Shown here: in pieces, positions 10,186 through 63,248 of the stretch
How the letters are laid out: each line of letters begins with the position of its first letter
Position numbering within the stretch: position 1 is the first letter of the stretch
Assembly: GCA_032124675.1 (NCBI GenBank)
Contig: JAQBDA010000196.1
Coordinates: forward strand, 207-64,206
Direction: 5' to 3'
Length of the DNA: 64,000 nucleotides
Origin: Chloroflexota bacterium
Lineage (GTDB): Bacteria > Chloroflexota > Anaerolineae > Anaerolineales > UBA4823
Made by a program: the position numbers and the translations under genes
The notes under the pieces: model-generated
What the model saw: only the letters and a program-made list of their open reading frames with translations
Told to the model about the DNA's origin: nothing
Databases searched by the model: none

Positions 10186-10217
10186 TTTAGCCCCCTGCAC
10201 ATAAAATTCTGTTACCA

Positions 10218-10250
10218 ACAGGCAGGTCGTAAAAGACCTGCCTGTTTTTC
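10218..10250 (+). terminator. Intrinsic terminator after sigma/anti-sigma pair 1
   Basis: ACAGGCAGGTC-gtaaaa-GACCTGCCTGT followed by TTTTT. An 11-bp perfect stem. Confidence 0.75.
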
Positions 10251-10384
10251 TGTACTAACCTTCCAATTATGAAAAGTTCGATCCTGTAAGGGATTCGATC
10301 TGGATTGTTTGATATCATTGCTAGCGCGTGTATCATCGTGATAACCCAGTGAAAATTTGTTATGATACGTCAAGAAGGTAATTT

Positions 10385-10984
10385 TTGATGTCCAATTCGC
10401 CTGGTGTTGAAGATCATCAGGATCTTGAAGATCTCCAACGCATTGAAGACCGTCAGTGGCTGAGTTCAGCTAAGGACGGGGATGCCGAGGCGTTTGGCAG
10501 GCTGTACGAGCGGTACGCCGACCGGGTGTTCCGCTACCTGTTCTCGCATCTGGATAACCGCCTGGATGCCGAGGACATCACTGAAGACGTCTTCTTGAGG
10601 GTATGGAGATCGTTGCCCAACTACCGCGAGCAGGGCGTGCCGTTCCTGGCGTTCCTGTTTCGCATCGCGCGCAATGCCCTGATCGATCACTACCGGCGCT
10701 CGAACCCGGTTAAGGGGCAGGTGTCGATCGATGATATGTCACTGCGTGATAACCGTCCCGGGCCTGGGGAATCGGCATTATCCAGTCTGGAACGTGAAGA
10801 GCTGCGCGCCTCATTGGAGCAGCTGCGCGATGATTACCGGACTGTGCTGGTCCTGCGATTTTTGAGCGAACTATCACCACACGAGACGGCGGAGGTCATG
10901 GGGCGCACGCCAGGAGCGGTTCGGGTGCTGCAGCACCGGGCGCTGGCCTCGCTGCGGACGATGCTTGACGGGAGTCTCAGGTAA
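10385..10984 (+). CDS. ECF-type sigma factor (pair 2)
   Basis: AEDITEDVFLRVWRSLPNYREQGVPFLAFLFRIARNALIDHYRR and LSPHETAEVMGRTPGAVRVLQHRALASLR. About 80% identical to 12600..13214 by my alignment. Confidence 0.85.
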   Translation: MMSNSPGVEDHQDLEDLQRIEDRQWLSSAKDGDAEAFGRLYERYADRVFRYLFSHLDNRLDAEDITEDVFLRVWRSLPNYREQGVPFLAFLFRIARNALIDHYRRSNPVKGQVSIDDMSLRDNRPGPGESALSSLEREELRASLEQLRDDYRTVLVLRFLSELSPHETAEVMGRTPGAVRVLQHRALASLRTMLDGSLR

Positions 10985-44696: not shown

Positions 44697-45362
44697 TTAC
44701 GAGTTCTGGTCTTGGTGAATGACCACGCACAGGAGGGAGCCTTGCTCTAGTGAGATGGAGCCTTGTTTGCCGGTCAGCGAGTTGCTAATGCCGCGACTGG
44801 CGCCGAAATGCAGCGTTTCGCCCTCCAAGGGGTATTCCAGCCCCTGTGTCGTAACACCATGCGCGCCACCGCTGACCGGTATTAGCGATACCACGTCACC
44901 CGGCTCTCCCAGGATCGAGTAATTCTCGCCGCCATGCAGCATGGTCAGCACCTGCTGGTCATCCACCAGACGTATTTTGGTATCTTTAAGACCGATTGAG
45001 GCGGGCAGCAGCAAGTTCGCCAGAGTCTGGTCCCATCTTGCTCCCAGACCCCCGAATACCAGAATGTCCTCTACACCGAGCGACCTGGCGTGCAGGAGTG
45101 CCAGCTCCAGGTCCGTATAGTCCTTGCGGGCAGGATGGCGGATCATGACTGTCTCTTGCGCGATAAATTGATCCAGGTCAGATTCAAGGAGAGAGTCGAA
45201 ATCGCCGATCAAGTAATCCGGGATGATGCCAAGCCTGGCGCAATGCAGAGCGCCGCCATCCGCGGCGATGATCAAGTCTCCGCTCTCCAGATATTTGTGG
45301 ACACGTTCATCATCAGTTATCAGCCCATTGGCGAAGATCACAGCACGCATTCGATCAGCCAA
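44697..45362 (-). CDS. thiN: Thiamine pyrophosphokinase
   Basis: IAADGGALHCARLGIIPDYLIGDFDS and KDYTDLELAL motifs. TTG start 45362, with GGAGG 7 nt upstream inside the riboswitch terminator stem. Alternative ATG at 45350. Confidence 0.8.
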   Translation of the reverse strand: MADRMRAVIFANGLITDDERVHKYLESGDLIIAADGGALHCARLGIIPDYLIGDFDSLLESDLDQFIAQETVMIRHPARKDYTDLELALLHARSLGVEDILVFGGLGARWDQTLANLLLPASIGLKDTKIRLVDDQQVLTMLHGGENYSILGEPGDVVSLIPVSGGAHGVTTQGLEYPLEGETLHFGASRGISNSLTGKQGSISLEQGSLLCVVIHQDQNS

Positions 45363-45505
45363 GACAAAACCCTCCTCTTTTCCGGAGGAGGGTGCTTTTT
45401 CTTTTCGCGCAATTCCTCCGCCGGCATTACCCGGATCAGGTTCGCGGGTCGAGAGCTTGTGGCTCTCCTCTCAGCCTGGCACCACCAGGCTCCCCGTGCA
45501 ATATA
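45363..45505 (-). ncRNA. TPP (THI-box) riboswitch with terminator/SD-sequestering hairpin
   Basis: The minus strand reads GGGGAGCCUGGUGGUGCCAGGCUGAGAGGAGAGCCACAAGCUCUCGACCCGCGAACCUGAUCCGGGUAAUGCCGGCGGAGGAA (CUGAGA and ACCUGAUCCGGGUAAUGCCGGCG boxes). This is followed by ACCCUCCUC-cggaaaa-GAGGAGGGU and UUUUGUCUU. Confidence 0.85.
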
Positions 45506-45520
45506 TTTTGCAACGCTATA

Positions 45521-45550
45521 AGTATACTCTCAGAAAGTACCGCCTGTCAA
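45521..45550 (-). promoter_or_regulatory. Candidate promoter of the riboswitch-thiamine salvage operon
   Basis: Minus strand: TTGACA (45550-45545), 18 nt, TATACT (45526-45521). Confidence 0.45.
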
Positions 45551-45604: not shown

Positions 45605-46393
45605 CTAGCGGATGCGGCGCTTCCATTCATCCTTCAACTGAAGCTGCTTCGGGCTTTCGCCTGAACTCAGGCTCAGAAAGTCGGTCAGCAATCGGTTGAA
45701 TTTGCTGGGTTCGTCCAGCATGGGAAAGCGACCTGACCCGTCCAGGATGATCCAGTGGGTGTTCTCACCCCATTGTGCAACCTCATCCAGCTCGGGAGGA
45801 TTGACAGCCGGGTCATTTTTACCGTGGACGAGCAGTACCGGTCTTGTGGAACGGTCCGGCAGGGTGGGCAGGTCTATTTCCTGGATATCATCCAGTGAGG
45901 CTGAAACAGCTTTGGGGTCGCTCTTCCCCGCTTCCGACCAGGCTGCCTCGGTCGTGGGGCTGCGCCCTAACAGCCAGTCTGCCAGTTCGACCGGTTCTGA
46001 GGAACGCAAGCGCGAATTGACCGCGTTGATATGGTGTGGGTAGCCGACTGCCAAAATGCGGTCAACCGCTTCAGGATAGCGCTGGGTATAAATCAGTCCG
46101 GTTACTGCACCCAGACCATGACCGATGATAGCGATCTTGTTGATCCCCATGGCATCCATGAATTCTTCCAACAGCATGGCTTGCTGATTAATTGAGTAGT
46201 AGGCGGGATTCTTGGCTGTGTCACCGAAACCCCACAGGTCGATTGCATACGTGCGGAAAGACAGGGATGCAGCCTGCATGGTTGATATCCAATAACGCCA
46301 TGAACCAACCCAATCGTGAAGGAAGAGCAGCGGACGGCCGCGCCCAAGCACCTCATAATGTATGATTTCATTGTGCAGGATGACAGCGCTCAT
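45605..46393 (-). CDS. Alpha/beta-hydrolase-fold protein lacking the catalytic Ser and His (probable pseudoenzyme)
   Basis: Paralog of 56868..57665. The nucleophile elbow reads IIGHGLGA (GGT Gly where Ser is expected). The His position reads SGRFPMLDEP (CGC Arg), against SGHFIMLDEP in the paralog. Asp is retained (VHGKNDP). Confidence 0.8.
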   Translation of the reverse strand: MSAVILHNEIIHYEVLGRGRPLLFLHDWVGSWRYWISTMQAASLSFRTYAIDLWGFGDTAKNPAYYSINQQAMLLEEFMDAMGINKIAIIGHGLGAVTGLIYTQRYPEAVDRILAVGYPHHINAVNSRLRSSEPVELADWLLGRSPTTEAAWSEAGKSDPKAVSASLDDIQEIDLPTLPDRSTRPVLLVHGKNDPAVNPPELDEVAQWGENTHWIILDGSGRFPMLDEPSKFNRLLTDFLSLSSGESPKQLQLKDEWKRRIR

Positions 46394-46443: not shown

Positions 46444-46821
46444 CTAACTACCCTTATTTTCGGCCAGGATGGCGTTTACGCGTTCGGTCAATTGGTCAGG
46501 AGCGAAAGGCTTCAATATGTATTCTATGGCTCCGGCCTCCAGCCCGGTCTGGACCTCTTTCTCCTGCCCCTTCGCAGATAAGAATACAACTGGGATGTGC
46601 CTAGTCGTTTCATCGGTTTTAATCTTTTCACAGGCCTCGTAACCCGTCATGCGCGGCATTCGTACGTCGAGCAAGATCAGGTCTGGTGAGAGTTCGCGGG
46701 CTTTTTCATATGCTTCCTCACCATTTGCCGTAGCGGTGACTTCATGCCCGGCAAAACTGAGTGTGAAATTGATCAGATCTCGGATATCGCGTTCGTCTTC
46801 AGCAATTAATATTCTTGCCAT
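46444..46821 (-). CDS. Single-domain CheY-like response regulator
   Basis: ILIAEDE, DLILLDVRMPRMTG, LSAKG, ILKPF. Starts 9 nt after the kinase stop. Confidence 0.9.
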   Translation of the reverse strand: MARILIAEDERDIRDLINFTLSFAGHEVTATANGEEAYEKARELSPDLILLDVRMPRMTGYEACEKIKTDETTRHIPVVFLSAKGQEKEVQTGLEAGAIEYILKPFAPDQLTERVNAILAENKGS

Positions 46822-46830
46822 AATACCTCA

Positions 46831-49800
46831 TCATTTTTCTGGATTGTAGACCGGCAGCGTAAATGAGAAGGTGCTGCCTTCACCAGGTACGCCGCTGCTT
46901 TCCAGCCAGATCTTCCCATCGTGCATGTCTACCAGGTGCTTGACGATCGATAACCCAAGCCCCGTACCAGAGGTCGCCAATACAAAAGGATGCTCGCCGC
47001 GGTAAAACCGCTCGAATACTCGCGGCTGTAAATCAAGCGGGATGCCGATACCGGTATCCTGAATATCGATCTGGACGTCGTCACCAGCCCGCCGCGTGCG
47101 CACCAGGATGCGACCACCTTCTGCCGTATAGCAGTAAGCATTTTCCAGCAGGTTCTCAATGATACGACGCACCTGTTCCGGATCACCCAGCACCCTGGGC
47201 AGTTTACGGGGGATATCAGTTTCGATCTGCATCGGTTTATTGTCTTCCTGGGAGCGGCGAGCAAGGTCGGTGGTGGTCTCATGTGCCAGTGGTGCCAGAT
47301 CGAAATGCTGTATAGAGAGGTTAAGCCGTCCGGATTCTATTCTGGAGATATCCAGAAGGTCATTTACAAGGATCGCCAGACGCTCGGAATTGTTCTTGAC
47401 GATCTCTAGGAAGTGCGCCTGCTGGTTGGTGAGCGGACCGGCGGCACCCATGAGCAGGATATCGACGTAGCCTTTTATCGAAGTCATTGGCGTCCGCAGT
47501 TCGTGGCTGACGGTAGCAACAAACTCAGATTTCAGCCGGTCAACCTCCACCTGGTGGGTGATATCCCGGAAGATCGATACCGTGCCGAGGAAATTATCCC
47601 GCAAGCTTACCGGTGCCAGATGGACTGATACCACTCTTCCATTGTCCAGATCGATCTGCTCGGCATATGTATCCCCGTGGGTAAAGGTGTCTGGATTTTG
47701 CGACCACGTTCGGATGGTGCCCATCCAGGCCTTGGCAGCCTTGCCAAAGATCCCGATGAAATGTTCCAGCGATTTGCCGATGACATTCGACCGGTTGAGC
47801 CCCAGGATGTCCTCGGCAGAGTCGTTGAACAGGGTGATCCTCATCGTCTCATCCGTAACCAGGACACCATCCGCCACATCTTCTAGCATCGCTTTCGTGC
47901 GCTGAGTCTCGATCTGCTGGCTTCTCACCATATTGCCAAGGTCTTCCGCCTGGTCGCGGATCAGCCGGTACAGCTCGGCGTTGTTCACCGCGATAGCTAC
48001 CTGGTTCGCAGCCGCCTGTACCATGTCTAATTGGTCCATTGAGAAATGGTCCACCCTGCGATGGAAGAACAGCAGCGTGCCCAGGGAGACACCACCGATC
48101 AACAGCGGCACACCGATAGCACTGCGATACTCGACGGTGCTGTTGGGCAGCTGCACCCATCTTGGGTCATCCCTGACATCTGGGATGAGAACAGGTTTGC
48201 GCTGCTGGATGATCCAACCTGCCAATCCCTCGTCCGGGTCTAGCGAGGTAAAGAATTCATCCGTAGTAAGCGCGGTCTGGTAGCCGACTGAGGCCAGGTG
48301 ATGCAGCTTCTTCTCCCCGGTGCGGGCGAGCAGCACGGTGATGTGCTCTGCATCGATGATCTGGTTGAGCACCTTCAGGGTGCGAGTGAGCACTTGTTCC
48401 AGGTCCAGGCTGGCGGAAAGCTCGGTGATCAGCCGCAGCAGGGTTTCGGTGCGCTGATGAGCGCGCGCCAGCTGCTCTGTGCGTTCGCGCACGCGCTGGT
48501 CGAGTTCATTCGTCAGGCTGCTTGTCTCTGCATACAGGCGACCGTTCTGGATGGCGATGGCCGCCTGGTTGCTGATAGTTTTTGCCAGCCCGACTTCATC
48601 ACCGGTGTAATGGTATGGTTGCTCCGAATGTACCAGGAGGATGCCGTGCAGGTCGCTTCCTGTAGCCAGCGACAGCGCCAGCAGGGACTGCGTGCCGATC
48701 TCGTCCAGATACTCCTTGAGAGGTGCCAGCTCTTCTTCCGAGCTAACGTCCTCGCAGTAAAAGACACCCAGGGTCTGCCGCAGGCGCTCGAATATCGGGG
48801 CATCAGGAATTGTGCGTGGTATGGTCACGTCTCGCGGGGGGAGCTCGGCTTTCAATACTGCCTTTCCCGATGTATCGAACATAACCGCTGAGACAGCAGT
48901 GCAGTTGAGTGTTTCGATGAGCTCCTGGAGTATGATTGACAGCAGATGGTCTGGATCGAGGGAACCGCTCAATTGGGTGGAGAAGCGGTTGAGCATTTCC
49001 AGGCGCTGCGAACGCTGGTCGAGGTCCGCGGCTCGGGATACGATCTGCTGGTAGAGGTTTGCATTTTCCAGGGCAACGGCCGCCTGTCCTGCAAAAGCGA
49101 TGGCAATCTGGATATGCTCGGCACTGTAAAAGTCTTCCTCGTCCTTTTCCAGAGCGATAACACCGATTACCTCACCGCCTGCGACAAGCGGGAGTCCCAG
49201 CCAGGAGGGGTTTGGGTTTTCCACCAGGGACGGGAAACGAGGGTCGTTTCGTACATCTCCGACATAGATCGCCTGGCAGGTATCTATCATCTCACGCAGC
49301 AAGAGGCTGTCTTCGATCGAGATCGAGAGCCCGGTGCGGACATCGCTATCAGCAAATCCGCGCGTGCCATGCACGAACATCTGGTCAGCCTGGCGCAGCC
49401 ACAGCGTGCCGGTATTGAATGGCAGAATAGCCTCCAGTTGGTCCAGCAATGAGCCAACCAGTTCCTCTGGCTGAAGGTTGGAGGAGATGATTGCCGCTGC
49501 TCCGGTCAGTGCCTGAAGCTGGTTGGCGCGCAGCTCTGCTGCCCGGAACAACCGTGAATACTCCAGGTTCAGCGCGGTTTGCTGGGTCAGGGAGGTCACA
49601 AGCGCCTGGGCATCGATTGAGAAGGCTTCCGGAACCTTGAAATTCTCGACCACCAGCACGCCTAAAGGATCGGTTCCCGGCGCTTTCTGCAGCGGAACGG
49701 CCATACTGGAGACCGGCAGCAAGCCATCGGTGGCGTCATGATAATTGAGCAGCATATCCGAGGTGAGGTTGTATAAACTGGGGAAATTCACTTCTTCCAC

Positions 49801-52800
49801 CCGTATAGGCTGGTTCTTGGCGAACGCTTTGCCAGGCAGGGCTTCTCCGGGCTGGTAGTGAATCTGCATGATCTTTTCCTGGACCACATACCCCGCGGCC
49901 GCCTGTGGTATGAGCAGTTCTTTCTTCGGGTCCCAGATCACCACCAGGCTGGCCTGGGCTAACGGCAGGACATGCAGAGCGCTCTCAACAAGTGTTTGCA
50001 AGATCCGTTCAGGCTCCAGGTTGCTCAGCTGGCGGTTGAAGTCCAGCAGCAGGTTCACTTCAGCCAGGTGACGGCTGATCTCCAGGAGCAGGTTCAAGTT
50101 CTGCAGCGTGATGGCGACATTCCGAGCCAGCAGAGAGAAAAGCTGTTCATCCTCGGCTGAAAATGGCGCCAGAGGTTTCTGGCTGATTGCCAAAATTGCT
50201 GAGTCCAGCCTTGCTCCGATAAAGATCGGTATGCAGATGAAGGATTTTGCCTCCAGGGTGTGCAGCAGTGGAGAAGCAGACCAATCGGAATCTGTCTCCA
50301 GGCGGGAGACCAGGATTTGCTCGCCGCTTTGCAGGGTGTGCAGCAGCGGGTTGCGCTGTCCGATGAGCGCGTCGATCTGGATATTGCCCGGCACTCGCCC
50401 AAGACTGTGCAGTAGATGTGGTCCAAGGTTCCCGGGCTCGACGATCAGGGCAATATCCATGTCCATCCGGGTTAATATCTCTCGCCCGAAGACCATCAAG
50501 ACACTGGAACGGTCGCCCTGGCGGCTGACGATCTCGGAGATATCCATGCCGGAACGGATGCGAGCCGCTCGCTGGCTGAGTTGCTGGACGGCGATTGTCT
50601 GCTCCAGGTCTTTATGCATCAAGATTGGAAGGTGGCTGTGTGCTGTAAGCACAGCCTGCTCAGCTCGGACAAGGTCTTCTTGAATATGCTCTGCACGGGA
50701 CTTCAGCCCGTGAATATTCCGGTGGCTAGTAATGACGTAAGAAGCCTGCTGGACGAAGATATCGAGCGATTCCAAGGTCTGAAGATCAGGGCGCAGGTGA
50801 TCGCGCGGTTCCTGCAGGGTGATAATACCCAATGGCTGCTCGTCGTGGTCTGTCATTGGGATGAAAAGCAGGTCTCCCGGCTGCCAGACATAGCCAGATG
50901 CTGCCTTATCTGCGCCTTTATGTGGTGCTGTGGGGGATTTTTCAACAGGAACGAAGGTCGCTTTCCCCAGTGCGTACTCTGGCAAAATCAGGTCGCTATA
51001 GCTGGCCCATGATACAGGTGCTCTTCCTTCTTCTGGGGCGGAGCCCCGGCTGCCTTCAACTCCGGCTGAGGAGATCAGCTCCTCTCGGTCTGGGTCGTAA
51101 TAATATAAGGACACTCGATCGAACAGGGTCGATTCTTGTATCGTCACTGCAATCTTACTGAGGGAGTTTTCCAGCGCTTCAATTGATCCATCATTTAGTG
51201 ATGTGTTCAGCAGCTTGGCCAGCGATTCAACCCGCCGGTTGAGCTGCTCACTCTGCTGGACTCGTTCCTGGTAGCGGTAAGCGTTGCCAAGTGCAACCGC
51301 GGCCTGCAACGCCAGCGCCTCACAGATATCCATCGCAGTCTGATCGAACAGGCGGGGTGTTTTCGAATGTAGGTGGATCAGCCCGGCAGTGTTACCCTGG
51401 TAGGCAATCGGTACGATGAGTGATGCACGGATATCCCTGTGGGGAGGTGGGCGGGAAGCTTCTTCATCACCGGTTAGATCAGCCGTCTCTGGTTTGTAAT
51501 CATCGCAGATCAGCGCCTCTCCGCTTTGCAGAACGCGCAACTCCAGAGAGTGCATGCTCTCAGGAAGTGGATCTCCAATCTGCAGCAGTATTCCAGGCCA
51601 GGGCATTGGTTGATCGTCGCTTTCCGGCACGGTCAGATCATCCCCATCATTATCGAAGAGAACGATGTTGCCGCAATCGGCATGCGTGGTCTGCCGCACT
51701 TCATCATACACTTGCTGAAGAATTTTATCGAGGTCAAGGTTGGTATTGAGCTCTCTGCTAAGGCGCGTTAACGAGGTGAGCTGGTCGACCCGCTGGCGCA
51801 GGGATTCATCCGTTTGGGTATACAGGGCGGCAGATTCGATCAGGCTTGCAAGCTGCCCGCAGGCAGTGATGACCGTCTGCACATCGCTGTGGGCGAAGAA
51901 ATGCGGCTGGTAGCTGCCCATCAAAAGCTCCCCAATCCCCCGGTCTCGAACGACCAATGGTGCGATGATGGCAGATTTCAAGCCCAGGCTGAGTAGCAGC
52001 GGGTGATACAGACGTGGTAGACGTAGATCATCCTGAATGTCGTCGCTGAATAGATAGTTCTGCGAACGGGCAACGCTCTGGGAAAATTCCGGGTCCTCTG
52101 ATGATATTTCCCCCATCCGGCTGGCAAATTCTGGTGAGATGCCAAATAATGAAGGTTTGTGGAGACGCAGCTCGCCGCGCTCCTGATCGAAGAGCAGCAC
52201 CCCGACCTTGTCGGCGTTCAGCAGTCGACCAAGATCTTGAAGGGAATATTTCAAGACCTCGTCCATTGTGGCAGATGACCCGGTCAGGCTGGCGATGCGG
52301 CGGAGCGTTTCGGCACGCTGTGCCCGGCGGTCCGATTGGTGGATCAACTCGGCGTTCTCAACAATTGGACCGGTCTGACCGGAGATAATCTCAAGCAGCC
52401 GTATATCATCCGGATCGAATGGGGTTTTATCCAGTTTATCGCCCACCAGGATATAGCCGAGGCTTTTACCGCTGGAGGTCAACGGCATCAGAACCATCTG
52501 CGTGATTCCGGCTGCAACAGCCAGATTATCGAACCCAAAAGCCTGCAGCTTGGGATCGGAAGCTGCCTGGTGAGAAATGATTGTTTCCCCTGACAGCCAC
52601 AGCTCCTCTGCCGGTGTTCCTGGTTTTATCACCGTGGTGGCCCATTCGATCACGTCTGCATGCAGCCCCATGAAGGGGTGCTGCCCCTCCAAAGTGTGGC
52701 GGAATTCATCGTACAGGATAAAGCCAAGGAAATTGACATCGATCAGCGGTGCAATGCTTTCGATGAGGTGCAAGAACAGGTTTTTTACATCTCGGCCGGT

Positions 52801-53844
52801 GCCAACTGCTTTGGCAAGATCGGCCAATCCGGCCAGTTCTTTTCCTCGCAGTTGTTCCTCTCTATATAGCAGTGCATTTTTAAGGGCGCTCGACGCTGGA
52901 CCGGATAAGATTTGCAGGATTTCCAGGTCATTCTGGCTGTAAGCTTCTTGGGACAGCGATCTGAGTTCAAGCGTGCCGATTAACTCTCCAGCATTGACCA
53001 GCGGAACGCCGATGAATGATTGTGCAGGCAGGGCGTTCGGGTCTGGGTTTGATACACCGGCAGTAACCCCAATTGAGTCCAGCATTATCACCGGATTGCG
53101 TTTTTCAAGCAGTTGCTCAGAAAATGCTCGAGAGCCTGGTTCATTGATATGGACTTCTAAAGCCCCTCCCCTGGTCTCCGTCATGCTGGCCAGCCTGTAT
53201 ACGGTCAGCTGAAGTCTGTCTGGATCATATAAAGTTACCTCGGCGCTGTCGTACGCGAGCAGGGTTTGGATCTTCTCCAGGATTGCCTTGATTGTGGTCT
53301 CGATATCCAGGCTGGCGGCCATCGCTTGCCCCAGCTCGTTCAGAAGCGAGACCGCACTGCGAGCGTTGTGGGAGTTCTCTTCCTGACCGGCATGCCCGTT
53401 TTTTAGTTCTAACAATGGCTGCACAGGCTGGAATGCGAGCAGATTGGCTTTGTTTTCCCCGTATGGAATGGAGTAAGTCCTGATCTGGACGGTATGCCCG
53501 TTCAAGTGAAGCCGATGGTCACCAGCAATCGAACAGATCTCGAGGAAGGCATCGCTGGGTCTGAATTTGCGGCTGAGGTCTTCGATCGAGGGCAGCTCAT
53601 CCCAGGCATCCAGGTATTCTCGTGCACGGCTGTTGAGATAGGCGACCCGCCCTCCTGCCTGGACGATTAAAACCCCTTCTTCCGTCTGGTCTGGCTCATC
53701 GAATTGGGGCAAAACGGGTGCGGTACTCGAGGTGCCTGGCTGGGTCCGCTGTACCCTGCGTAGCAGAACCAGAGTCAGCAGCGCGGCCGACAAGCCAAGT
53801 ATCACGAAAATGGTACCGAGAATTGAAAAATCTATCTGTGCCAT
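46831..53844 (-). CDS. Giant (2337 aa) membrane-anchored sensor histidine kinase: ~10 GAF-like modules, PAS, HisKA, HATPase_c
   Basis: N-terminal TM (ILGTIFVILGLSAALLTLVLL). Recurrent GAF-type starts: L..L...L....D.......L......L.AD...V.L.D. A PAS module (MLEDVADGVLVTDETMRITLFNDSAEDILG). H-box SHELRTPMTSIKGY, N-box ENLLENAYCYT, G1 DTGIGI, G2 GTGLGLSIV. Confidence 0.9.
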   Translation of the reverse strand: MAQIDFSILGTIFVILGLSAALLTLVLLRRVQRTQPGTSSTAPVLPQFDEPDQTEEGVLIVQAGGRVAYLNSRAREYLDAWDELPSIEDLSRKFRPSDAFLEICSIAGDHRLHLNGHTVQIRTYSIPYGENKANLLAFQPVQPLLELKNGHAGQEENSHNARSAVSLLNELGQAMAASLDIETTIKAILEKIQTLLAYDSAEVTLYDPDRLQLTVYRLASMTETRGGALEVHINEPGSRAFSEQLLEKRNPVIMLDSIGVTAGVSNPDPNALPAQSFIGVPLVNAGELIGTLELRSLSQEAYSQNDLEILQILSGPASSALKNALLYREEQLRGKELAGLADLAKAVGTGRDVKNLFLHLIESIAPLIDVNFLGFILYDEFRHTLEGQHPFMGLHADVIEWATTVIKPGTPAEELWLSGETIISHQAASDPKLQAFGFDNLAVAAGITQMVLMPLTSSGKSLGYILVGDKLDKTPFDPDDIRLLEIISGQTGPIVENAELIHQSDRRAQRAETLRRIASLTGSSATMDEVLKYSLQDLGRLLNADKVGVLLFDQERGELRLHKPSLFGISPEFASRMGEISSEDPEFSQSVARSQNYLFSDDIQDDLRLPRLYHPLLLSLGLKSAIIAPLVVRDRGIGELLMGSYQPHFFAHSDVQTVITACGQLASLIESAALYTQTDESLRQRVDQLTSLTRLSRELNTNLDLDKILQQVYDEVRQTTHADCGNIVLFDNDGDDLTVPESDDQPMPWPGILLQIGDPLPESMHSLELRVLQSGEALICDDYKPETADLTGDEEASRPPPHRDIRASLIVPIAYQGNTAGLIHLHSKTPRLFDQTAMDICEALALQAAVALGNAYRYQERVQQSEQLNRRVESLAKLLNTSLNDGSIEALENSLSKIAVTIQESTLFDRVSLYYYDPDREELISSAGVEGSRGSAPEEGRAPVSWASYSDLILPEYALGKATFVPVEKSPTAPHKGADKAASGYVWQPGDLLFIPMTDHDEQPLGIITLQEPRDHLRPDLQTLESLDIFVQQASYVITSHRNIHGLKSRAEHIQEDLVRAEQAVLTAHSHLPILMHKDLEQTIAVQQLSQRAARIRSGMDISEIVSRQGDRSSVLMVFGREILTRMDMDIALIVEPGNLGPHLLHSLGRVPGNIQIDALIGQRNPLLHTLQSGEQILVSRLETDSDWSASPLLHTLEAKSFICIPIFIGARLDSAILAISQKPLAPFSAEDEQLFSLLARNVAITLQNLNLLLEISRHLAEVNLLLDFNRQLSNLEPERILQTLVESALHVLPLAQASLVVIWDPKKELLIPQAAAGYVVQEKIMQIHYQPGEALPGKAFAKNQPIRVEEVNFPSLYNLTSDMLLNYHDATDGLLPVSSMAVPLQKAPGTDPLGVLVVENFKVPEAFSIDAQALVTSLTQQTALNLEYSRLFRAAELRANQLQALTGAAAIISSNLQPEELVGSLLDQLEAILPFNTGTLWLRQADQMFVHGTRGFADSDVRTGLSISIEDSLLLREMIDTCQAIYVGDVRNDPRFPSLVENPNPSWLGLPLVAGGEVIGVIALEKDEEDFYSAEHIQIAIAFAGQAAVALENANLYQQIVSRAADLDQRSQRLEMLNRFSTQLSGSLDPDHLLSIILQELIETLNCTAVSAVMFDTSGKAVLKAELPPRDVTIPRTIPDAPIFERLRQTLGVFYCEDVSSEEELAPLKEYLDEIGTQSLLALSLATGSDLHGILLVHSEQPYHYTGDEVGLAKTISNQAAIAIQNGRLYAETSSLTNELDQRVRERTEQLARAHQRTETLLRLITELSASLDLEQVLTRTLKVLNQIIDAEHITVLLARTGEKKLHHLASVGYQTALTTDEFFTSLDPDEGLAGWIIQQRKPVLIPDVRDDPRWVQLPNSTVEYRSAIGVPLLIGGVSLGTLLFFHRRVDHFSMDQLDMVQAAANQVAIAVNNAELYRLIRDQAEDLGNMVRSQQIETQRTKAMLEDVADGVLVTDETMRITLFNDSAEDILGLNRSNVIGKSLEHFIGIFGKAAKAWMGTIRTWSQNPDTFTHGDTYAEQIDLDNGRVVSVHLAPVSLRDNFLGTVSIFRDITHQVEVDRLKSEFVATVSHELRTPMTSIKGYVDILLMGAAGPLTNQQAHFLEIVKNNSERLAILVNDLLDISRIESGRLNLSIQHFDLAPLAHETTTDLARRSQEDNKPMQIETDIPRKLPRVLGDPEQVRRIIENLLENAYCYTAEGGRILVRTRRAGDDVQIDIQDTGIGIPLDLQPRVFERFYRGEHPFVLATSGTGLGLSIVKHLVDMHDGKIWLESSGVPGEGSTFSFTLPVYNPEK

Positions 53845-53883: not shown

Positions 53884-54783
53884 TTATATATCCGACCGCC
53901 TGGCCTCTGCGGCGATTTCGGTTATCTCGCGAATATCAGCAAAATCATATTGGGTTGGCGAAACAACCCCTACCGACATCGACATTAATGGAGTCTTGAT
54001 CTGCTGTCCGGATTCATTGATTGTGACGACATAGCCCTGTTCACGGTCGATAAAGCTGTAATGGGCGAGCACATCTTCTGAGAAGCGTGTTTTCAGAGAC
54101 TGCCTGATCTTCGGGGCGTTTTCGTCGCTGGTTATGATGATGAAGCTGTCTCCCCCGGCATGACCGATAAAATCATCCTGAGTGCCCTGGTCGTCGATCA
54201 CTTCACCGATCATCATGGCGGTGAAGCGCAGCACGTCGTCGCCTGCGACGAAGCCATACACATCCTTGAAGGTATCAAAGTGATTGATGCGCACATCCAT
54301 CAGCGCCCATGCTGGCTGCCGGATGATGCGCCGCAGCTGTTCTTCGATCAGTCTGCCGGATGGCAGTCCGGAACGGGGGTCGGTTAAGCTCTGCTGTTCC
54401 GCCCGGGAGATCGCCCGCTGGACGCGTAGTTTCAGCTCTTCGATATCAAATGGTTTGGTGATATAGTCATCCGCTCCCAGCTCAAGACCCTGCAGCTTGT
54501 CACTGCGTTCATCTTTCTGGGTGAGAAAGATGATCGGCACGTGGCTGGTACGTGTGTTCGTCCGTAAAATTCGGCATACTTCGAAGCCGTCGATATCCGG
54601 CAGCATAATATCGAGCACGATCAGGTGCGGCAGGCTCTGGCGGGTTTTCTCCAGCGCGTCATTGCCGCGCGGTGCTGTCTCTACTTCATAGTTGTGCCCG
54701 GTGAAGTAGATCTTCAGCATATTCAATATGTCAAAATCATCTTCGACGATCAATAGGCGAGGTTTACCCATCATGACCTCCAT
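53884..54783 (-). CDS. Response regulator: receiver plus degenerate GGDEF (GGDSF) domain
   Basis: LLIVEDD, HLIVLDIMLPDIDG, DDYITKPF. The GGDEF-like domain has HAGGDSFIII and no RxxD I-site. The likely true start is ATG 54771 (GGAGG 5 nt upstream). Paralog of 1999..2841. Confidence 0.85.
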   Translation of the reverse strand: MEVMMGKPRLLIVEDDFDILNMLKIYFTGHNYEVETAPRGNDALEKTRQSLPHLIVLDIMLPDIDGFEVCRILRTNTRTSHVPIIFLTQKDERSDKLQGLELGADDYITKPFDIEELKLRVQRAISRAEQQSLTDPRSGLPSGRLIEEQLRRIIRQPAWALMDVRINHFDTFKDVYGFVAGDDVLRFTAMMIGEVIDDQGTQDDFIGHAGGDSFIIITSDENAPKIRQSLKTRFSEDVLAHYSFIDREQGYVVTINESGQQIKTPLMSMSVGVVSPTQYDFADIREITEIAAEARRSDI

Positions 54784-54872: not shown

Positions 54873-56165
54873 TCACCAGGATTCAACTGCCAGTTCCTCG
54901 ATCCTGGGATATAAACGTGGGTGGAGGTTGGCATAAGATAGCTGGTGGTGGTCGCTATCCTCGAAACGAATATCGTGCTCAATTACCCGGCGGTCTCTAG
55001 TGGCATATAACACAACATCGGATTCGATCGTTCGCGCCGGAAAGATGATCAGACCCGCACCAATCCGGGTGTTATGACCGATGCAGCCGCCTAACACAGG
55101 TCGATTGGAATAGTTCAGCTGGGAGTTGCCATCTCTTGCGCGGATAGGGGTCAAGACCAGATTGAAATCTGTGAAGGTTGTCCCGGCGCCAATGAAAGTA
55201 TTGCGACCGACCACGCACATCTGCAAACAGGTATTCTGAGCGACCATGCTGTTTTCCATCAGTGTTGTCATAAACAGAGATGACCGGAAGGGGAGAAAAG
55301 ATCCATCCCCGACGACGGACAGCATGAGCTGGCAGTCCTGGGAGATATTGACATTGCTGCCGATAATACAGTTTTCGATGACAGCCCCGGCGTTGATGGT
55401 GACGTTGTCACCGATGATGGTCGGGCCGTGAATGGTGGCATGCGGATCGATGATGCAGTTGCGGCCGACATGTACCAGCTCCGAGCTTTCCAGCACCTGC
55501 TTCCCCTCCAGCATGGCTTTGGCAAGGATCTTCAGCTTGTAAAAGGGGAAATTCTCCAGCTTCTCCTCGAACCGGGCGCCGCGGGTGAACTGTCCGAAGA
55601 CGATATCGGCGATAAAGATATGCACCCATGAATCAATGGCGATCAGGCTGCGCCGCGGCACTTGAAAAGTCAGGTCACCCTGTTCATACGCCATGTAGGT
55701 AGGGACGTGATAATATCCAGCCTCCGTAGAATCCAGGTCGATCACCACCGGCTCGGCGGACATGGGATCGATCTCGGAATGGATGCCTTCCGGGAAGTAC
55801 CACAATTCGCTAAGATACAGGTCGCCATCTGGCGTGTAGGATGTGGATAGGGGGAGAGCGTGTTCTCTGAATGCTGGGTCGTTTGCAGAGCAGGCCGCCT
55901 GGCAGGGTCGCCGGCGCAGCTTTGCTTCAGCAAGGAATGCTTCCATATAATCGTTGTCGAAATATAGGTTGTCCCTGTAGAGCAGGCATTCTTCTTCTAC
56001 CCTGGGGAATTTAGCACCGTAAGGCAGCTCCATCTCCCGGTGTGTGTGGGGAGCGAGTATGTCCCTTTGAGCCAGCCATAGGGGTTTATTCTGGATGCGT
56101 AAATCCCGCGCACGCTCGTTGAACGGGTATATATGGCGTGGGTCTTGCAGGATGATCTTTATCAT
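54873..56165 (-). CDS. Hexapeptide-repeat (left-handed beta-helix) protein with an unknown ~230-aa N-terminal domain
   Basis: C-terminal half: VGRNCIIDPHATIHGPTIIGDNVTINAGAVIENCIIGSNVNISQDC...VVGRNTFIGAGTTF...IGHNTRIGAGLIIFP. I could not find a nucleotidyltransferase G-x-G-x-R signature. Confidence 0.6.
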   Translation of the reverse strand: MIKIILQDPRHIYPFNERARDLRIQNKPLWLAQRDILAPHTHREMELPYGAKFPRVEEECLLYRDNLYFDNDYMEAFLAEAKLRRRPCQAACSANDPAFREHALPLSTSYTPDGDLYLSELWYFPEGIHSEIDPMSAEPVVIDLDSTEAGYYHVPTYMAYEQGDLTFQVPRRSLIAIDSWVHIFIADIVFGQFTRGARFEEKLENFPFYKLKILAKAMLEGKQVLESSELVHVGRNCIIDPHATIHGPTIIGDNVTINAGAVIENCIIGSNVNISQDCQLMLSVVGDGSFLPFRSSLFMTTLMENSMVAQNTCLQMCVVGRNTFIGAGTTFTDFNLVLTPIRARDGNSQLNYSNRPVLGGCIGHNTRIGAGLIIFPARTIESDVVLYATRDRRVIEHDIRFEDSDHHQLSYANLHPRLYPRIEELAVESW

Positions 56166-56241: not shown

Positions 56242-56871
56242 TCATTCTATTGGGACCTTCTCAATACTTATCGCACAGCTCGGATCGCCTTTGGCGACGC
56301 ATAGGGTCTCCTGGACATTAAAGAATTTGCCTCCGCTTACCCAATTGAGAGCCTCTTGCAGTGTCCCGACTGCCAGATGGCAGGCAGGATTGTCCTCATG
56401 GCGATGGTAGCAGAGCGGGCAGTTTGTCATATGCCAGTAGAAGCTTTCTTCGTCCTCCTCCAGCCGGACCTGCTGATCAGTATTCTGGTTGAATATCCCG
56501 GCAAAAATTCTGCCCCCCTGGCGGATTTTTGTATTTTGTGGCAGCAATCGAAAATCCTGGTCCGAGATATCGATGAGCTGACCAAATTGGCGCAGGCCAT
56601 ATTTGAAACATGCACGTCCTGACCGCACCGCCAGTCCTTGACCACCCCGCGCTCCATATACTGCCTCCAGGGAAGACATCATCTTGCTGATCTGGGTGTA
56701 CGGCACATCGCGATCCAAATTATCCGGCGGAAAGTTCTGCACCAGGTGCACCAGATCGGCATGCTTGAGCACGGCCTCAAGCCCGGAGTCTCCGAGAACT
56801 TCCTCCAAACCCAGGAGGATGATCTGTCCCAGCATATTTGGGTAATACATCTCAGGGGTTTGTCCGGTCAT
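56242..56871 (-). CDS. V4R domain protein (paralog of 1353..1988)
   Basis: FPPDNLDRDV, YGARGGQGLAVRSGRA, CPLCYHRHEDNPACH...ETLCVAKGDPSCA. ATGA overlap with the upstream hydrolase gene. Confidence 0.75.
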   Translation of the reverse strand: MTGQTPEMYYPNMLGQIILLGLEEVLGDSGLEAVLKHADLVHLVQNFPPDNLDRDVPYTQISKMMSSLEAVYGARGGQGLAVRSGRACFKYGLRQFGQLIDISDQDFRLLPQNTKIRQGGRIFAGIFNQNTDQQVRLEEDEESFYWHMTNCPLCYHRHEDNPACHLAVGTLQEALNWVSGGKFFNVQETLCVAKGDPSCAISIEKVPIE

Positions 56872-57665
56872 TGGGTTTGTATCTCATCATCCAGAAAGTC
56901 CCGTAAAGTTTTCATGAAACGTTGAGGCTCGTCCAACATAATAAAATGCCCGGATGCTGGGAACAGCTCGATGCGGGCGTGGCTGATGCCTTCATGCATG
57001 GGCATCCACTGCTTGCCGCTGACGACAATGTCTTTCCTGCCGTACATCCCCATCGCGGGGATCTTAATTTTGGTTAGATGCGGTCGCAGGTCGGTGCTAC
57101 GCAGGGATGCGATGCTCAGCAGGAACGATTCGAGCGACACCCGCGAGAGATCATGATCCATCATCGCAGGCCAGCGCTTATCTCGAGTGTAGAACGGTGC
57201 CAATGCCCGGTAGCTGAGCTGGAACGCCCATAGATTGTTGTACACCAGCCAGGCTACCGTCCTGTAACCAAATAGTTTTAACAGAATGGAGAGCGATGAG
57301 CCTACTATCGGGGAACCGATCACAGCCACTTTGCCAACCCGGTCTGGATGGTGGATCGCGACTGACAACCCGACTGTCCCCCCCATGCTGTGACCGACCA
57401 GCGGAGCGCGGGCGATGCCCAACTGCTCCATAAATTGGTTTACCATGCTTACAAAAACTTGGACTGAATAATTCTCCAGTTTCTTTCCAGATTCACCAAA
57501 ACCCCAAAAATCTAATGCATATGTCCGGTAATGCTGGCCGAGATAGGCCATGGTCTCCTGCCACAGGCCCCATGACCCTAGCCAGCCATGCAGCAAAATA
57601 ACCGGGTCCCCCCTCCCGTAAACTTCGTAATGGACGATCCCTTGATCGGTAGTAATTGATGACAC
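56868..57665 (-). CDS. Alpha/beta hydrolase with an intact Ser-Asp-His triad
   Basis: HGWLGSW, nucleophile elbow GHSMGG, GRKDIVV, SGHFIMLDEP. Confidence 0.85.
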   Translation of the reverse strand: MSSITTDQGIVHYEVYGRGDPVILLHGWLGSWGLWQETMAYLGQHYRTYALDFWGFGESGKKLENYSVQVFVSMVNQFMEQLGIARAPLVGHSMGGTVGLSVAIHHPDRVGKVAVIGSPIVGSSLSILLKLFGYRTVAWLVYNNLWAFQLSYRALAPFYTRDKRWPAMMDHDLSRVSLESFLLSIASLRSTDLRPHLTKIKIPAMGMYGRKDIVVSGKQWMPMHEGISHARIELFPASGHFIMLDEPQRFMKTLRDFLDDEIQTQ

Positions 57666-57688: not shown

Positions 57689-58228
57689 TTATGCCTCGCC
57701 CAAATCCATCTCAGCCAATATGCTGTAGAGCAGTTCTAACAAGACCGACTTGACATTCTCTTTATCGACTGCTACACAAGGCAGCAATTTGACATTCGAG
57801 TCCAGTCGCAAAGCGATCCGCATGTCCTCCGAATCCCAGGCATCTTCTTTGTCTTGTTTATTGGCTGCAACGACATACGGGGTGGGGGCGTAGGCGCGGA
57901 ATGTTTCCAGGATGCTGCGCGCTTCCCGAAACGTCTCGGGTCGTGTGCTGTCAACCATTACCACGAACCCCAACATGCCTTCCGAGAGAATTTCCCACAT
58001 AAAGTCGAACCGTTTCTGACCTGGAGTGCCGAATAGATACAGCACCAGGTCGTCATCCACTGTAATGCGTCCAAAATCCATCGCTACGGTGGTGGTCTCT
58101 TTGACCCGTTCGGCCACTGAGGAAATCTTTCGCTCCGTGGAAACGACATCGATCTCACTTACAGAGCGGATAAACTCGGTTTTGCCAGCATTGAAAGGTC
58201 CTGTGACCACCATTTTAACTGTTTGCAT
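57689..58228 (-). CDS. MglA/CvnD-like small Ras-superfamily GTPase (COG2229-type ATP/GTP-binding protein)
   Basis: G1 GPFNAGKT; switch I Thr run (ETTTVAMDFG); G3 FGTPGQ, with the canonical Asp replaced as in MglA-like proteins; G4 NKQD. 179 aa. Confidence 0.85.
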   Translation of the reverse strand: MQTVKMVVTGPFNAGKTEFIRSVSEIDVVSTERKISSVAERVKETTTVAMDFGRITVDDDLVLYLFGTPGQKRFDFMWEILSEGMLGFVVMVDSTRPETFREARSILETFRAYAPTPYVVAANKQDKEDAWDSEDMRIALRLDSNVKLLPCVAVDKENVKSVLLELLYSILAEMDLGEA

Positions 58229-58291: not shown

Positions 58292-59113
58292 TCATAATGA
58301 GCGGATGCGACTGATGAGCCTGTTGATCAGTGATTTCTGCTCTTCCGGCGTGCCTTTTTGAACGGCTTGCCGGGAGGGGAGCTGTACGGGGCGCACACCT
58401 TCCGGGCGCACAATATCCACTAGACCGGCTTGCAGCAGGCTGTAAGCGATCCGCCTTATCTCTACCTCATTCAACTTCGTTGCCCGGGCGATCTGGCGCA
58501 TCGAGTTCTTCGGATTGATATAGGAGACAACCCGCCATTCCTCGACGCTGAGATTGAGATTGCGCAGGTTTGCTCCTGGCCGGTCGGTAAATTTCAATGC
58601 CATATCCAGGCTGGGGATTTCGTCCTGCAGCTGCTCCACCTCGCGCATCCGGCGTGTGCCTTCGATGATGATGTTCTCCAGATTGATGCGCACGGTGATT
58701 TTATCGCCGGGAGGCAGCAGGTCGCTTTCAAATCGGAACAGCCCTTCCACCAACGTGAACAAACGGTTGAGAATGGCTATGAAATGGTTCTGTAAACTGA
58801 TCAGGATGTCTTGCTGGCTGATGTAATTGGCGTTGATCAGCAGCAAGCCTAATTCCTTATCGCTCATATGACCAGCGCGCTCTTTGATAATCTTATGCTG
58901 GGCAGCCGACAGCTTTTTCGCTCGGTAAAGGATGGTAGCCAGTGAATTGTCCTCTTCACCCACCCTGGCATACGCCAGTTTGCCCTCTCGAAACGAGACC
59001 TGGATCGCCACATTCTGCCCATCGACGACGAGTGTGCCCGTCTTCTGCGCCAGGTTGATCAAGTTCAACAATTGTGAGACGGTGAAATCTCTAAGATTGC
59101 CTTTCAATGCCAT
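58292..59113 (-). CDS. DUF4388 domain protein with a C-terminal winged-helix (DUF742/CvnC-like) segment
   Basis: The N-terminus MALKGNLRDFTVSQLLNLINLAQKTGTLVV is the DUF4388 hallmark. The C-terminus LSVEEWRVVSYINPKNSMRQIARATKLNEVEIRRIAYSLLQAGLV looks like a wHTH. Confidence 0.7.
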   Translation of the reverse strand: MALKGNLRDFTVSQLLNLINLAQKTGTLVVDGQNVAIQVSFREGKLAYARVGEEDNSLATILYRAKKLSAAQHKIIKERAGHMSDKELGLLLINANYISQQDILISLQNHFIAILNRLFTLVEGLFRFESDLLPPGDKITVRINLENIIIEGTRRMREVEQLQDEIPSLDMALKFTDRPGANLRNLNLSVEEWRVVSYINPKNSMRQIARATKLNEVEIRRIAYSLLQAGLVDIVRPEGVRPVQLPSRQAVQKGTPEEQKSLINRLISRIRSL

Positions 59114-59211: not shown

Positions 59212-59240
59212 TTGACACTGCTTCTGCTTGAGTTTATAAT
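59212..59240 (+). promoter_or_regulatory. Consensus promoter of tRNA-Asn
   Basis: TTGACA (59212-59217), 17 nt, TATAAT (59235-59240). The tRNA starts 15 nt downstream of the -10 box. Confidence 0.7.
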
Positions 59241-59254
59241 CCGGTTCGCAAAAT

Positions 59255-59327
59255 TCCTCGGTAGCTCAATTGGCAGAGCGGGCGGCTGTTAACCGCTAGG
59301 TTCCAGGTTCGAGTCCTGGCCGAGGAG
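59255..59327 (+). tRNA. tRNA-Asn (anticodon GUU)
   Basis: Acceptor TCCTCGG pairs with CCGAGGA. D-arm GCTC-AATTGGCA-GAGC. Anticodon stem-loop GGCGG-CTGTTAA-CCGCT. T-arm CCAGG-TTCGAGT-CCTGG. No encoded CCA. Confidence 0.9.
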
Positions 59328-63154: not shown

Positions 63155-63248
63155 GGGAGTGGTTGGGTCCCGGTGGGCTCCCCGGTCTTCAAAACCGGTG
63201 GCGGGTCGTTCTGCGGGCCGCGGTGGGTTCGACTCCCATCCACTCCCG
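63155..63248 (+). tRNA. selC: Selenocysteine tRNA (anticodon UCA)
   Basis: 8-bp acceptor GGGAGTGG pairs with CCACTCCC. 6-bp D-stem GGGTCC/GGGCTC with loop CGGT. Anticodon stem-loop CCGGT-CTTCAAA-ACCGG. Long variable arm (~22 nt). T-arm TGGG-TTCGACT-CCCA, the same T-loop as E. coli selC. Discriminator G. 94 nt. Confidence 0.85.

Follow-up and report, generated by a model that had tools for sequence, protein, structure and literature searches.

The locus described here raises the question of what a protein with the alpha/beta-hydrolase fold is doing at the end of a bacterial signalling gene cluster when its catalytic nucleophile is missing. The protein, denoted ABH_G, is encoded on the minus strand of the 64,000-nucleotide stretch of a Chloroflexota contig that was analysed (the window), and its paralog ABH_S is the only other alpha/beta hydrolase in the window. 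We put the chances at about even that ABH_G is a conserved non-hydrolytic pseudo-hydrolase, which forms the dedicated terminal component of a two-component module and acts as the partner of a receiver protein. Besides ABH_G, the module would consist of a histidine kinase with multiple GAF domains, a protein that joins a receiver to a degenerate GGDEF domain, and a stand-alone receiver. A role as a binding partner best fits the missing nucleophile, the variable oxyanion motif, the selection acting on the gene, its linkage to the receiver gene, its C-terminal tail, and the signalling context. The features of the two hydrolase-fold genes are:

45605-46393, minus strand: ABH_G, 262 residues with the alpha/beta-hydrolase fold, nucleophile absent (key residues Asp27, Gly93, Asp194 and Arg222)
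46313-46315, minus strand: codon 27 of ABH_G, GAT, Asp in place of the Gly of the oxyanion-hole HG motif
46115-46117, minus strand: codon 93 of ABH_G, GGT, Gly at the nucleophile elbow GHGLGA
45812-45814, minus strand: codon 194 of ABH_G, Asp194 within GKNDP
45728-45730, minus strand: codon 222 of ABH_G, CGC, Arg at the position of the catalytic His
45608-45649, minus strand: basic C-terminal tail of ABH_G, KQLQLKDEWKRRIR-COOH, residues 249-262, which defines the family
56868-57665, minus strand: ABH_S, the intact paralog, 265 residues with a GTG start, containing LHGW, GHSMGG, GRKDI and SGHFIMLDEP

An earlier reading of this DNA from its letters alone (the sequence-only reading) had described the two genes as paralogs that align throughout, with HGW, GHSMGG, a catalytic Asp and SGHFIMLDEP in ABH_S and with GHGLGA, SGRFPMLDEP and a retained Asp in ABH_G. 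Both open reading frames and their motifs were located at these coordinates, and the description is borne out by an alignment of 259 residues and by the codons GGT and CGC. The motifs of ABH_G are LHDW (residues 25-28), GHGLGA (residues 91-96), GKNDP (containing Asp194), and SGRFPMLDEP (containing Arg222). The oxyanion-hole motif of ABH_G thus reads HD instead of HG, a change that the sequence-only reading did not mention. Compared with a competent serine hydrolase, ABH_G has Gly93, Arg222, and Asp27 at the positions of the nucleophile, the His, and the oxyanion Gly, respectively, and only Asp194 is kept.

The protein belongs to the alpha/beta-hydrolase fold superfamily as judged by Pfam, AlphaFold, and Foldseek. 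The Pfam score for Abhydrolase_1 is 73.1 bits (cut-off 25.8; E 3.6e-20), and that for Abhydrolase_6 is 47.2 bits. The AlphaFold model of ABH_G, built on 60 homologs, has the canonical fold with a mean predicted local distance difference test score (pLDDT) of 91 and a predicted template-modelling score (pTM) of 0.91. Gly93 is found in a strand-turn-helix elbow between the strand of residues 87-92 and the helix of residues 94-105. The strand of residues 186-191 is followed by Asp194, and that of residues 212-217 by Arg222. An alternative Ser or His at the canonical catalytic positions, which the sequence-only reading had named as a result that would count against it, was not found in the model. 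A Foldseek comparison with the PDB provided matches at a probability of 1.00 and template-modelling (TM) scores of up to 0.80, including AidH, PcaD, and esterases; D14, KAI2, and DAD2 were also matched. For the models of ABH_G and ABH_S alike, the matches in the PDB were generic lidded hydrolases only, with no informative specific relative. In a sequence search of the PDB, the best match to ABH_G has an E value of 4e-14 and covers only the N-terminal half. The best matches are epoxide, meta-cleavage-product (MCP), and haloalkane-type hydrolases, and not proteins of the hydroxynitrile-lyase or MKS1 types.

Codons 27, 93, and 222 of ABH_G are identical in three independent sediment metagenomes. 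A metatranscriptome contig from a close strain retains the Arg222 codon, and its other differences from ABH_G are synonymous or conservative. The ABH_G sequence is thus real and not an assembly error. In the source annotation, the serine-less relatives P0001-P0120 and P0401-P0517 and the gene at 9887-10675 of locus L004 are labelled as pimeloyl-ACP methyl ester carboxylesterase or 3-oxoadipate enol-lactonase. These enzyme labels are mis-annotations; elsewhere in databases, such proteins are entered as alpha/beta hydrolase.

ABH_G was compared with its 120 best homologs (n = 121 including the window protein), which are 58-93% identical to it. Nearly all of these proteins are 262 residues long, and those labelled with an organism derive from metagenome-assembled genomes (MAGs) of Anaerolineales or Chloroflexota. 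When each GTDB species was represented by one genome, a relative of ABH_G was detected in at least 575 species, and the locus counts given below are taken from the best 80. All of these 80 species are labelled as Anaerolineae or Chloroflexota, bar one MAG labelled as Bacteroidota, and the cultured Levilinea saccharolytica and Anaerolinea thermolimosa are among them. Strains KIBI-1 of the former (L028) and IMO-1 of the latter (L041) possess the module with ABH_G. An exhaustive search of representatives at 50% identity provided 138 clusters at E <= 1e-30, most of which end in a tail of the type …LKEEWKRRVR-COOH or …KERWRRRSR-COOH.

The elbow Gly is present in 121/121 close homologs, with the pattern GHG[LFM]G[AGS] and one instance of WHGFGA, and at 79 of the 80 loci, where the single exception is Ala. 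Asp194 is retained in all 121 close homologs and at 80/80 loci. A His occupies position 222 at 80/80 loci and in 118/121 close homologs; Arg222 is confined to the window protein and to homologs P0001 (93% identity) and P0002 (86% identity). The ortholog comparison proposed in the sequence-only reading came out positive for Gly (121/121; 79/80) and negative for Arg. The nearest His-bearing ortholog, from locus L004 (81% identity), reads CAC where the window reads CGC, which is the single-nucleotide difference that had been proposed. The corresponding proposal for Gly93, that GGT lies one nucleotide from AGT, is correct by the codon table; as a recent event it does not hold, since Gly is universal among the close homologs. 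From these comparisons, the change of Ser to Gly is ancient and a trait of the whole family, and that of His to Arg is recent and limited to the clade of the window. A history with an old loss of the nucleophile and a recent loss of the His differs from the one that the sequence-only reading implied.

The catalytic positions were also tabulated for the 78 full-length clusters that bear the tail. The elbow residue is Gly in 50 of them, Ser in 12, Ala in 11, Asp in 3, and Thr in 2; the His is kept in 72 and the Asp in 75. Among the members with a long lid, the elbow residue is Gly in 116/118 and the His is present in 118/118. In a rough neighbour-joining tree, the tail-bearing lineages with Ser or Ala branch early, and in the derived clades Gly predominates, while Ser, Ala, Asp, and Thr occur here and there. 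This scatter suggests selection for a small residue and not for a nucleophile, and from the sequences the elbow position seems to require just a small residue. The oxyanion HG position alternates among Gly, Asp, Ser, and Thr across the family, with Asp replacing the Gly in 82/121 close homologs. Independent losses of the His have occurred in several lineages of the family, in which Leu, Phe, Ala, Gln, Ile, Pro, or Arg is found instead.

The retention of ABH_G was assessed from the ratio of nonsynonymous to synonymous substitutions (dN/dS), calculated according to Nei and Gojobori. The values obtained for ABH_G and for other genes of the locus are:

ABH_G, window versus L005 (both with Arg): dN/dS 0.124
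ABH_G, window versus L004 (with His): dN/dS 0.151
ABH_G, four pairs of His-bearing orthologs: dN/dS 0.044-0.156
Beta-helix protein, window versus L004: dN/dS 0.03
Receiver-GGDEF protein, window versus L004: dN/dS 0.05
Stand-alone receiver, window versus L004: dN/dS 0.05
Histidine kinase, window versus L004: dN/dS 0.10
Thiamine pyrophosphokinase, window versus L004: dN/dS 0.18

ABH_G is clearly under purifying selection, and the loss of the His caused no relaxation; the purifying selection on which the sequence-only reading had made its case depend is evident in the values of 0.124-0.151. The constraint on ABH_G is weaker than that on its signalling neighbours (0.15 versus 0.03-0.10) and stronger than that on the pyrophosphokinase (0.18). 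With a strict filter, both the receiver and ABH_G are full-length and free of stop codons at 77/80 loci, and a stop codon occurs in 1/80 of the ABH_G matches. The decay of orthologs that had been named as a refuting result was not seen. One apparently truncated ortholog, P0011 (224 residues, 38 short of the full length), was considered as a case of decay and rejected; its start codon is mis-called, and the full 262-residue open reading frame exists. The combination of lost catalytic residues, purifying selection, and intact orthologs is that of a pseudoenzyme, and ABH_G would be classed as one.

The character that defines the family is its invariant C-terminal tail. Residues K254, W257, R259, R260, and R262 show at least 92% conservation in each of two clades: the short-lid clade, whose members have 262 residues, and the long-lid clade, whose members have 322-476 residues and an insertion that follows position ~133-137 and is 60 to more than 200 residues long. 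ABH_G ends in KDEWKRRIR, in agreement with the pattern KxxW[KR]RRxR at the C-terminus. All 80 GTDB loci end in WKRRVR, WKRRIR, WRRRVR, or WKRKVR, and the long-lid clade ends in KERWRRRSR. The tail is hydrophilic with a net charge of +4 (window) to +5, and its pLDDT in the AlphaFold model is 50-60; low confidence combined with a hydrophilic, charged sequence is what is expected for a docking peptide. A role as a MinD-like membrane-targeting helix was considered and found unlikely, with a mean hydrophobicity of -0.8 to -0.9 and a moderate hydrophobic moment. A few residues of the lid are invariant (R128, L141, and D159). Long-lid members with organism labels belong to Aggregatilineales, Phototrophicales, or other Anaerolineae.

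In the Gly-type relatives P0128, P0165, P0219, and P0176, a fused TIR_2 or CHAT domain takes the place of the tail. Such fusions are architectures typical of proteins of conflict or defence signalling. With PADLOC, only the TIR and CHAT parts of these fused relatives were matched, and no model matched the hydrolase-fold domain. All NCBIfam matches of ABH_G are far below the cut-offs, and the Pfam Ndr family provides faint or partial matches to a few relatives only. The tail-bearing, receiver-linked hydrolase-fold proteins are a large unnamed family of the Anaerolineae, defined here by the tail together with the linkage to a receiver.

ABH_S differs from ABH_G in both its catalytic residues and its C-terminus. 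The full triad is present in 121/121 of its homologs, with the elbow GHSMGG, and the basic C-terminal tail is absent. ABH_S scores 104 bits against Pfam Abhydrolase_1 (cut-off 25.8), and its AlphaFold model (pLDDT 87) is closest in fold to enol-lactonase, MCP hydrolases, D14/KAI2, and esterases. The two proteins are 29% identical over 259 residues (E 4e-38), with 20 gap positions in the lid. Their families are each other's nearest relatives, and ABH_S groups in the rough tree with the tail-less, Ser-bearing clusters at the base. The two genes are ancient paralogs, both originally of the Ser type, of which the distal copy lost its nucleophile in most lineages. ABH_S is presumably the real hydrolase of the cluster; it would be co-translated with the V4R protein, beside the GTPase and PATAN genes. 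The sequence-only description of an enzyme and pseudoenzyme pair is therefore likely to be right, given the universal triad of ABH_S, the missing nucleophile of ABH_G, and their place in one ancient cluster. The remaining genes of the cluster and its boundary are:

58292-59113, minus strand: PATAN (DUF4388) protein, with which the cluster begins (Pfam DUF4388/PatA_N, E 4e-21)
57689-58228, minus strand: small Ras-superfamily GTPase of 179 residues (Pfam ATP_bind_1, Ras, and Arf), whose switch II reads GTPGQ and which we take to be MglA-like
56242-56871, minus strand: V4R-domain protein (Pfam V4R, 32.2 bits, cut-off 31), with an overlap of 4 nucleotides between its start and the stop of ABH_S
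54873-56165, minus strand: 430-residue protein with a C-terminal left-handed beta-helix of hexapeptide repeats (Pfam, LbH_EIF2B-like), conserved in the cluster
53884-54783, minus strand: fusion of a receiver with a degenerate GGDEF domain, in which the motif is GGDSF (Pfam)
46831-53844, minus strand: histidine kinase of 2337 residues (Pfam: nine GAF domains, followed by PAS, HisKA, and HATPase)
46444-46821, minus strand: stand-alone receiver of 125 residues (Pfam Response_reg, E 4.7e-31), immediately upstream of ABH_G
45395-45550, minus strand: cluster boundary, with a sigma-70-like promoter at 45550-45521 (11/12 positions) and a thiamine pyrophosphate (TPP) riboswitch at 45395-45506 (RF00059, 67.4 bits)

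The order on the minus strand is PATAN, GTPase, ABH_S, V4R, beta-helix, receiver-GGDEF, kinase, receiver, and ABH_G. The sequence-only reading had placed an intact ABH_G at the 3' end of its operon. This placement stands, since the promoter and the TPP riboswitch open the next unit; no terminator was found after the ABH_G stop codon. The same reading had proposed, as a possible role, that the pair produces or senses the small molecule seen by a layer of V4R and GAF proteins. The place of ABH_G needs correction here; the gene is always directly preceded by the stand-alone receiver and then the kinase, and not by ABH_S, the V4R gene, or the GAF layer.

The order of kinase, receiver, and ABH_G is kept at 79 of the best 80 GTDB loci, with the receiver-GGDEF gene upstream of the kinase. 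The cluster genes that lie further upstream are present wherever the flank of the locus extends far enough. The four-gene core of receiver-GGDEF, kinase, receiver, and hydrolase-fold gene is also found in the long-lid orders and in basal lineages whose distal hydrolase-fold protein carries a Ser (GHSSGG, GHSLGA). The receiver gene also lies directly upstream of the distal hydrolase-fold gene in loci L087, L088, L089, L091, L092, and L094, and its stop overlaps the following start by 4 nucleotides in L087 and L089. Both hydrolase-fold genes, within the full cluster, are also present in the divergent lineages of L092 and L094, and the idea that the adjacency of ABH_S is limited to Anaerolineales was rejected on this account. 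No ABH_S is seen in L087 and L088 because the 10-kb flank ends before reaching it. The V4R gene is missing from some orthologous clusters (L001, L094). A metatranscriptome contig covers the 3' end of the kinase gene, the receiver gene, and the 5' part of ABH_G; it is consistent with co-transcription, and a carry-over of DNA into the library is possible.

Two further members of the module vary across the class. The kinase ranges from 918-931 residues with two or three GAF domains (L092, L094) to ~2900 residues (L089), and the GAF array has been greatly expanded within the class. The receiver-GGDEF orthologs read GGDNF, GGDSF, or GGANF, and this protein is apparently a pseudo-diguanylate cyclase, a second conserved inactive enzyme domain in the module. 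A gene resembling Shikimate_DH lies upstream in L087 and L088 and between the beta-helix and receiver-GGDEF genes in L092 and L094. A weak Roadblock/LC7-like gene follows the GTPase gene at 1576-1947 of L092 (19 bits, below the cut-off), and the window has no such gene. The beta-helix protein is eIF2B-epsilon-like, and V4R has a fold related to the Bet3 subunit of TRAPP (PMC10933270). PATAN genes have been reported to neighbour those of MglA-family GTPases, Chloroflexi included, with no mention of a hydrolase (PMC4316618).

Several observations concern the flanks. Downstream of the riboswitch lies an operon for a thiamine pyrophosphokinase (44697-45362, minus strand) and a thiamine ABC transporter. 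In most Anaerolineae, the pyrophosphokinase gene directly follows ABH_G; in L087 (11118-11771) it is separated from the hydrolase-fold gene by 4 nucleotides, with nothing between them among the called genes. The word depth in the metagenomes increases 4- to 28-fold across the riboswitch core (45414-45470), and many short contigs end there, evidently because this conserved aptamer sequence is common to many other genomes of the samples and interrupts the assemblies. On the other side, a tRNA gene on the opposite strand from the cluster (59255-59327, plus strand) is preceded by a sigma-70 promoter that matches the consensus at 12/12 positions (59212-59240). Beyond it, upstream of the cluster, lies a GAF-GAF-GGDEF gene (59396-61603) with a full-length GGDEF match. 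A selenocysteine tRNA was detected at 63155-63247 on the plus strand (RF01852, 75.4 bits), from which the organism probably makes selenoproteins.

If ABH_G is the partner of the receiver, it would work by binding and not by catalysis. Stand-alone receivers generally act through protein contacts, and the likeliest partner of ABH_G is the stand-alone receiver encoded beside it, which it may bind depending on phosphorylation. ABH_G would then be an adaptor or effector of the receiver, with the basic tail as a docking or output element, and the cavity covered by the lid may still hold a ligand. Four points weigh against this proposal. The strong conservation of His222 (80/80, 118/118) and Asp194 would fit a catalytic dyad, with the lineage of the window as an exception. 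A mirror-tree comparison across 34 genomes detected no co-evolution of ABH_G with the receiver beyond their shared phylogeny; the correlation with the receiver is r = 0.58, relative to 0.73 for the kinase, 0.72 for the receiver-GGDEF protein, and 0.74 for the thiamine pyrophosphokinase control. The invariant polar lid residues R128 and D159 could mark a ligand site. The gene order is compatible with an output partner and with an input co-sensor alike and cannot tell the two apart. A bolder version, which we advance only tentatively and hold to be well short of even probability, is that the tail-bearing proteins are an unrecognised class of two-component accessory proteins that dock to the phosphorylated receiver, either as an effector whose tail feeds the PATAN/GTPase module or as a receiver phosphatase with a His/Asp dyad. 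If the phosphatase alternative is true, the dyad would activate water against the acyl-phosphate, which would account for a covalent nucleophile not being needed, and the clade with His changed to Arg would have kept the docking and lost or changed the chemistry.

Three other explanations of the conserved, serine-less gene were weighed. That ABH_G is a duplicate of ABH_S which was recently inactivated and is heading for loss can be regarded as refuted, and its probability is negligible. The three altered catalytic positions of the window copy and the faster evolution of ABH_G relative to its operon neighbours (dN/dS 0.15 versus 0.03-0.10) would be expected of such a gene. The identity to ABH_S of only 29% dates the duplication as old, however, and a length of 262 residues in the window and in nearly all of the 120 closest homologs, a dN/dS far below 1, synteny kept across the class, and the presence of ABH_G in the metatranscriptome all speak against decay, as does the finding that the sole apparently truncated ortholog has a mis-called start. 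A doubtful, though not negligible, explanation is that ABH_G is a ligand receptor or co-sensor, which binds a small hydrophobic molecule in the cavity under its lid without hydrolysing it and signals to the kinase or the receiver. The ligand might be made or consumed by ABH_S, and ABH_G would be a hydrolysis-independent analogue of RsbQ or D14/KAI2. The fold class of small lidded hydrolases, which includes D14/KAI2, the few invariant lid residues (R128, L141, D159), the ancient cluster shared with an intact paralog and a ligand-binding V4R protein, and the resemblance to sensor modules of those Gly-type domains that are joined to TIR or CHAT effectors all lend it some credit. It is set back by a lid that accepts inserts from 60 to more than 200 residues long, by variation of the pocket-forming residues of the HG motif, the elbow, and (in the window) the His, by orthologous clusters without V4R, and by the need of known receptor hydrolases for their triad. 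The ligand-receptor idea is compatible with a role as an adaptor.

The last explanation, which we consider unlikely and place slightly behind a ligand receptor, is a non-canonical enzyme in which a His/Asp dyad activates water or abstracts a proton, with the Arg222 variant as an inactive or re-purposed offshoot. The dyad is retained to a degree that favours this idea: the His is found in 72/78 tail-bearing clusters, in 118/118 long-lid members and in 80/80 species, and the Asp in 75/78 clusters and in 80/80 species. The elbow GHALGA occurs in some members and is the same as that of MKS1, an active decarboxylase (PMC3531081). The conservation of a His is nevertheless not diagnostic of activity (PMC3531081), and it is offset by the several independent losses of the His within the family, by the unrelaxed selection after its loss in the clade of the window, by the Asp at the oxyanion Gly in 82/121 close homologs, and by a gene context that is purely of signalling, with no metabolic genes. 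A role of ABH_G as the non-enzymatic partner of the receiver accommodates these observations best, and the interpretation offered by the sequence-only reading is partly supported overall.

Non-catalytic proteins with the alpha/beta-hydrolase fold are well known in animals, and receptors of the hydrolase type are known in plants and Bacillus. No description of a class-wide bacterial pseudo-hydrolase family tied to a two-component system was found in the literature, Pfam, NCBIfam, PADLOC, or by sequence and fold in the PDB, all of which returned generic results; nor was a characterised relative of ABH_G found in the literature, the profile libraries, or the PDB. The label BioH, assigned automatically by the Joint Genome Institute (JGI), reflects only the generic fold; ABH_G lacks both a Ser nucleophile and a biotin gene context, and it scores 44.9 bits against TIGR01738 (cut-off 206.95) with Gly at the elbow.

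RsbQ of Bacillus subtilis resembles ABH_G as a small lidded hydrolase-fold protein encoded beside a bacterial signalling protein. RsbQ keeps and needs its Ser-His-Asp triad, however, and its partner RsbP is a PAS-PP2C phosphatase, whereas ABH_G lacks the nucleophile, is accompanied by genes for a kinase and a stand-alone receiver, and carries a basic C-terminal tail. The strigolactone and karrikin receptors D14, KAI2, and DAD2 are alpha/beta hydrolases of the same fold class that serve as receptors. They are 16-20% identical to ABH_G in sequence, and the catalytic positions of ABH_G are occupied by Gly and Arg. These receptors cleave their ligand by means of an intact triad and signal via F-box proteins. 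ABH_G has neither the Ser nor the His of these receptors, and the cluster contains no gene for a PP2C or F-box protein. The analogies that the sequence-only reading drew to RsbQ and to D14/KAI2 thus fail on the triad, which these receptors need and ABH_G has lost. CheB offers a different parallel, in that a receiver controls an esterase of the Ser-His-Asp type, as with the receiver and hydrolase-fold protein of the Ser-bearing basal lineages; in CheB, a single protein contains both parts, the catalytic domain has another fold, and the enzyme is active.

Neuroligins, glutactin, thyroglobulin's C-terminal domain, and NDRG proteins are eukaryotic, and some of them are extracellular adhesion proteins. 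In these proteins the fold has been kept for binding and the nucleophile lost, often with retention of the His (PMC3531081). They have nothing in common with ABH_G beyond the fold. Tomato MKS1 has the nucleophile-less elbow GHALG and a conserved His and is an active decarboxylase (PMC3531081). MKS1 is a 3-ketoacid decarboxylase of the hydroxynitrile-lyase subclass; ABH_G of the window differs in its Arg at the position of the His, its signalling context, its basic tail, and its PDB matches, which are to other subclasses.

The nearest functional analogues of ABH_G are RsbQ-RsbP, D14/KAI2, and the eukaryotic non-catalytic fold proteins, and ABH_G belongs to neither the receptors with an intact triad nor the eukaryotic group. 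Its family marks a large conserved signalling cluster in the Anaerolineae, which are abundant but poorly understood bacteria of sediment and sludge. With Ser, Ala, Gly, Asp, and Thr at the elbow, with and without the His, and all in one gene context, it amounts to a natural experiment on whether a receptor-like hydrolase needs its chemistry.

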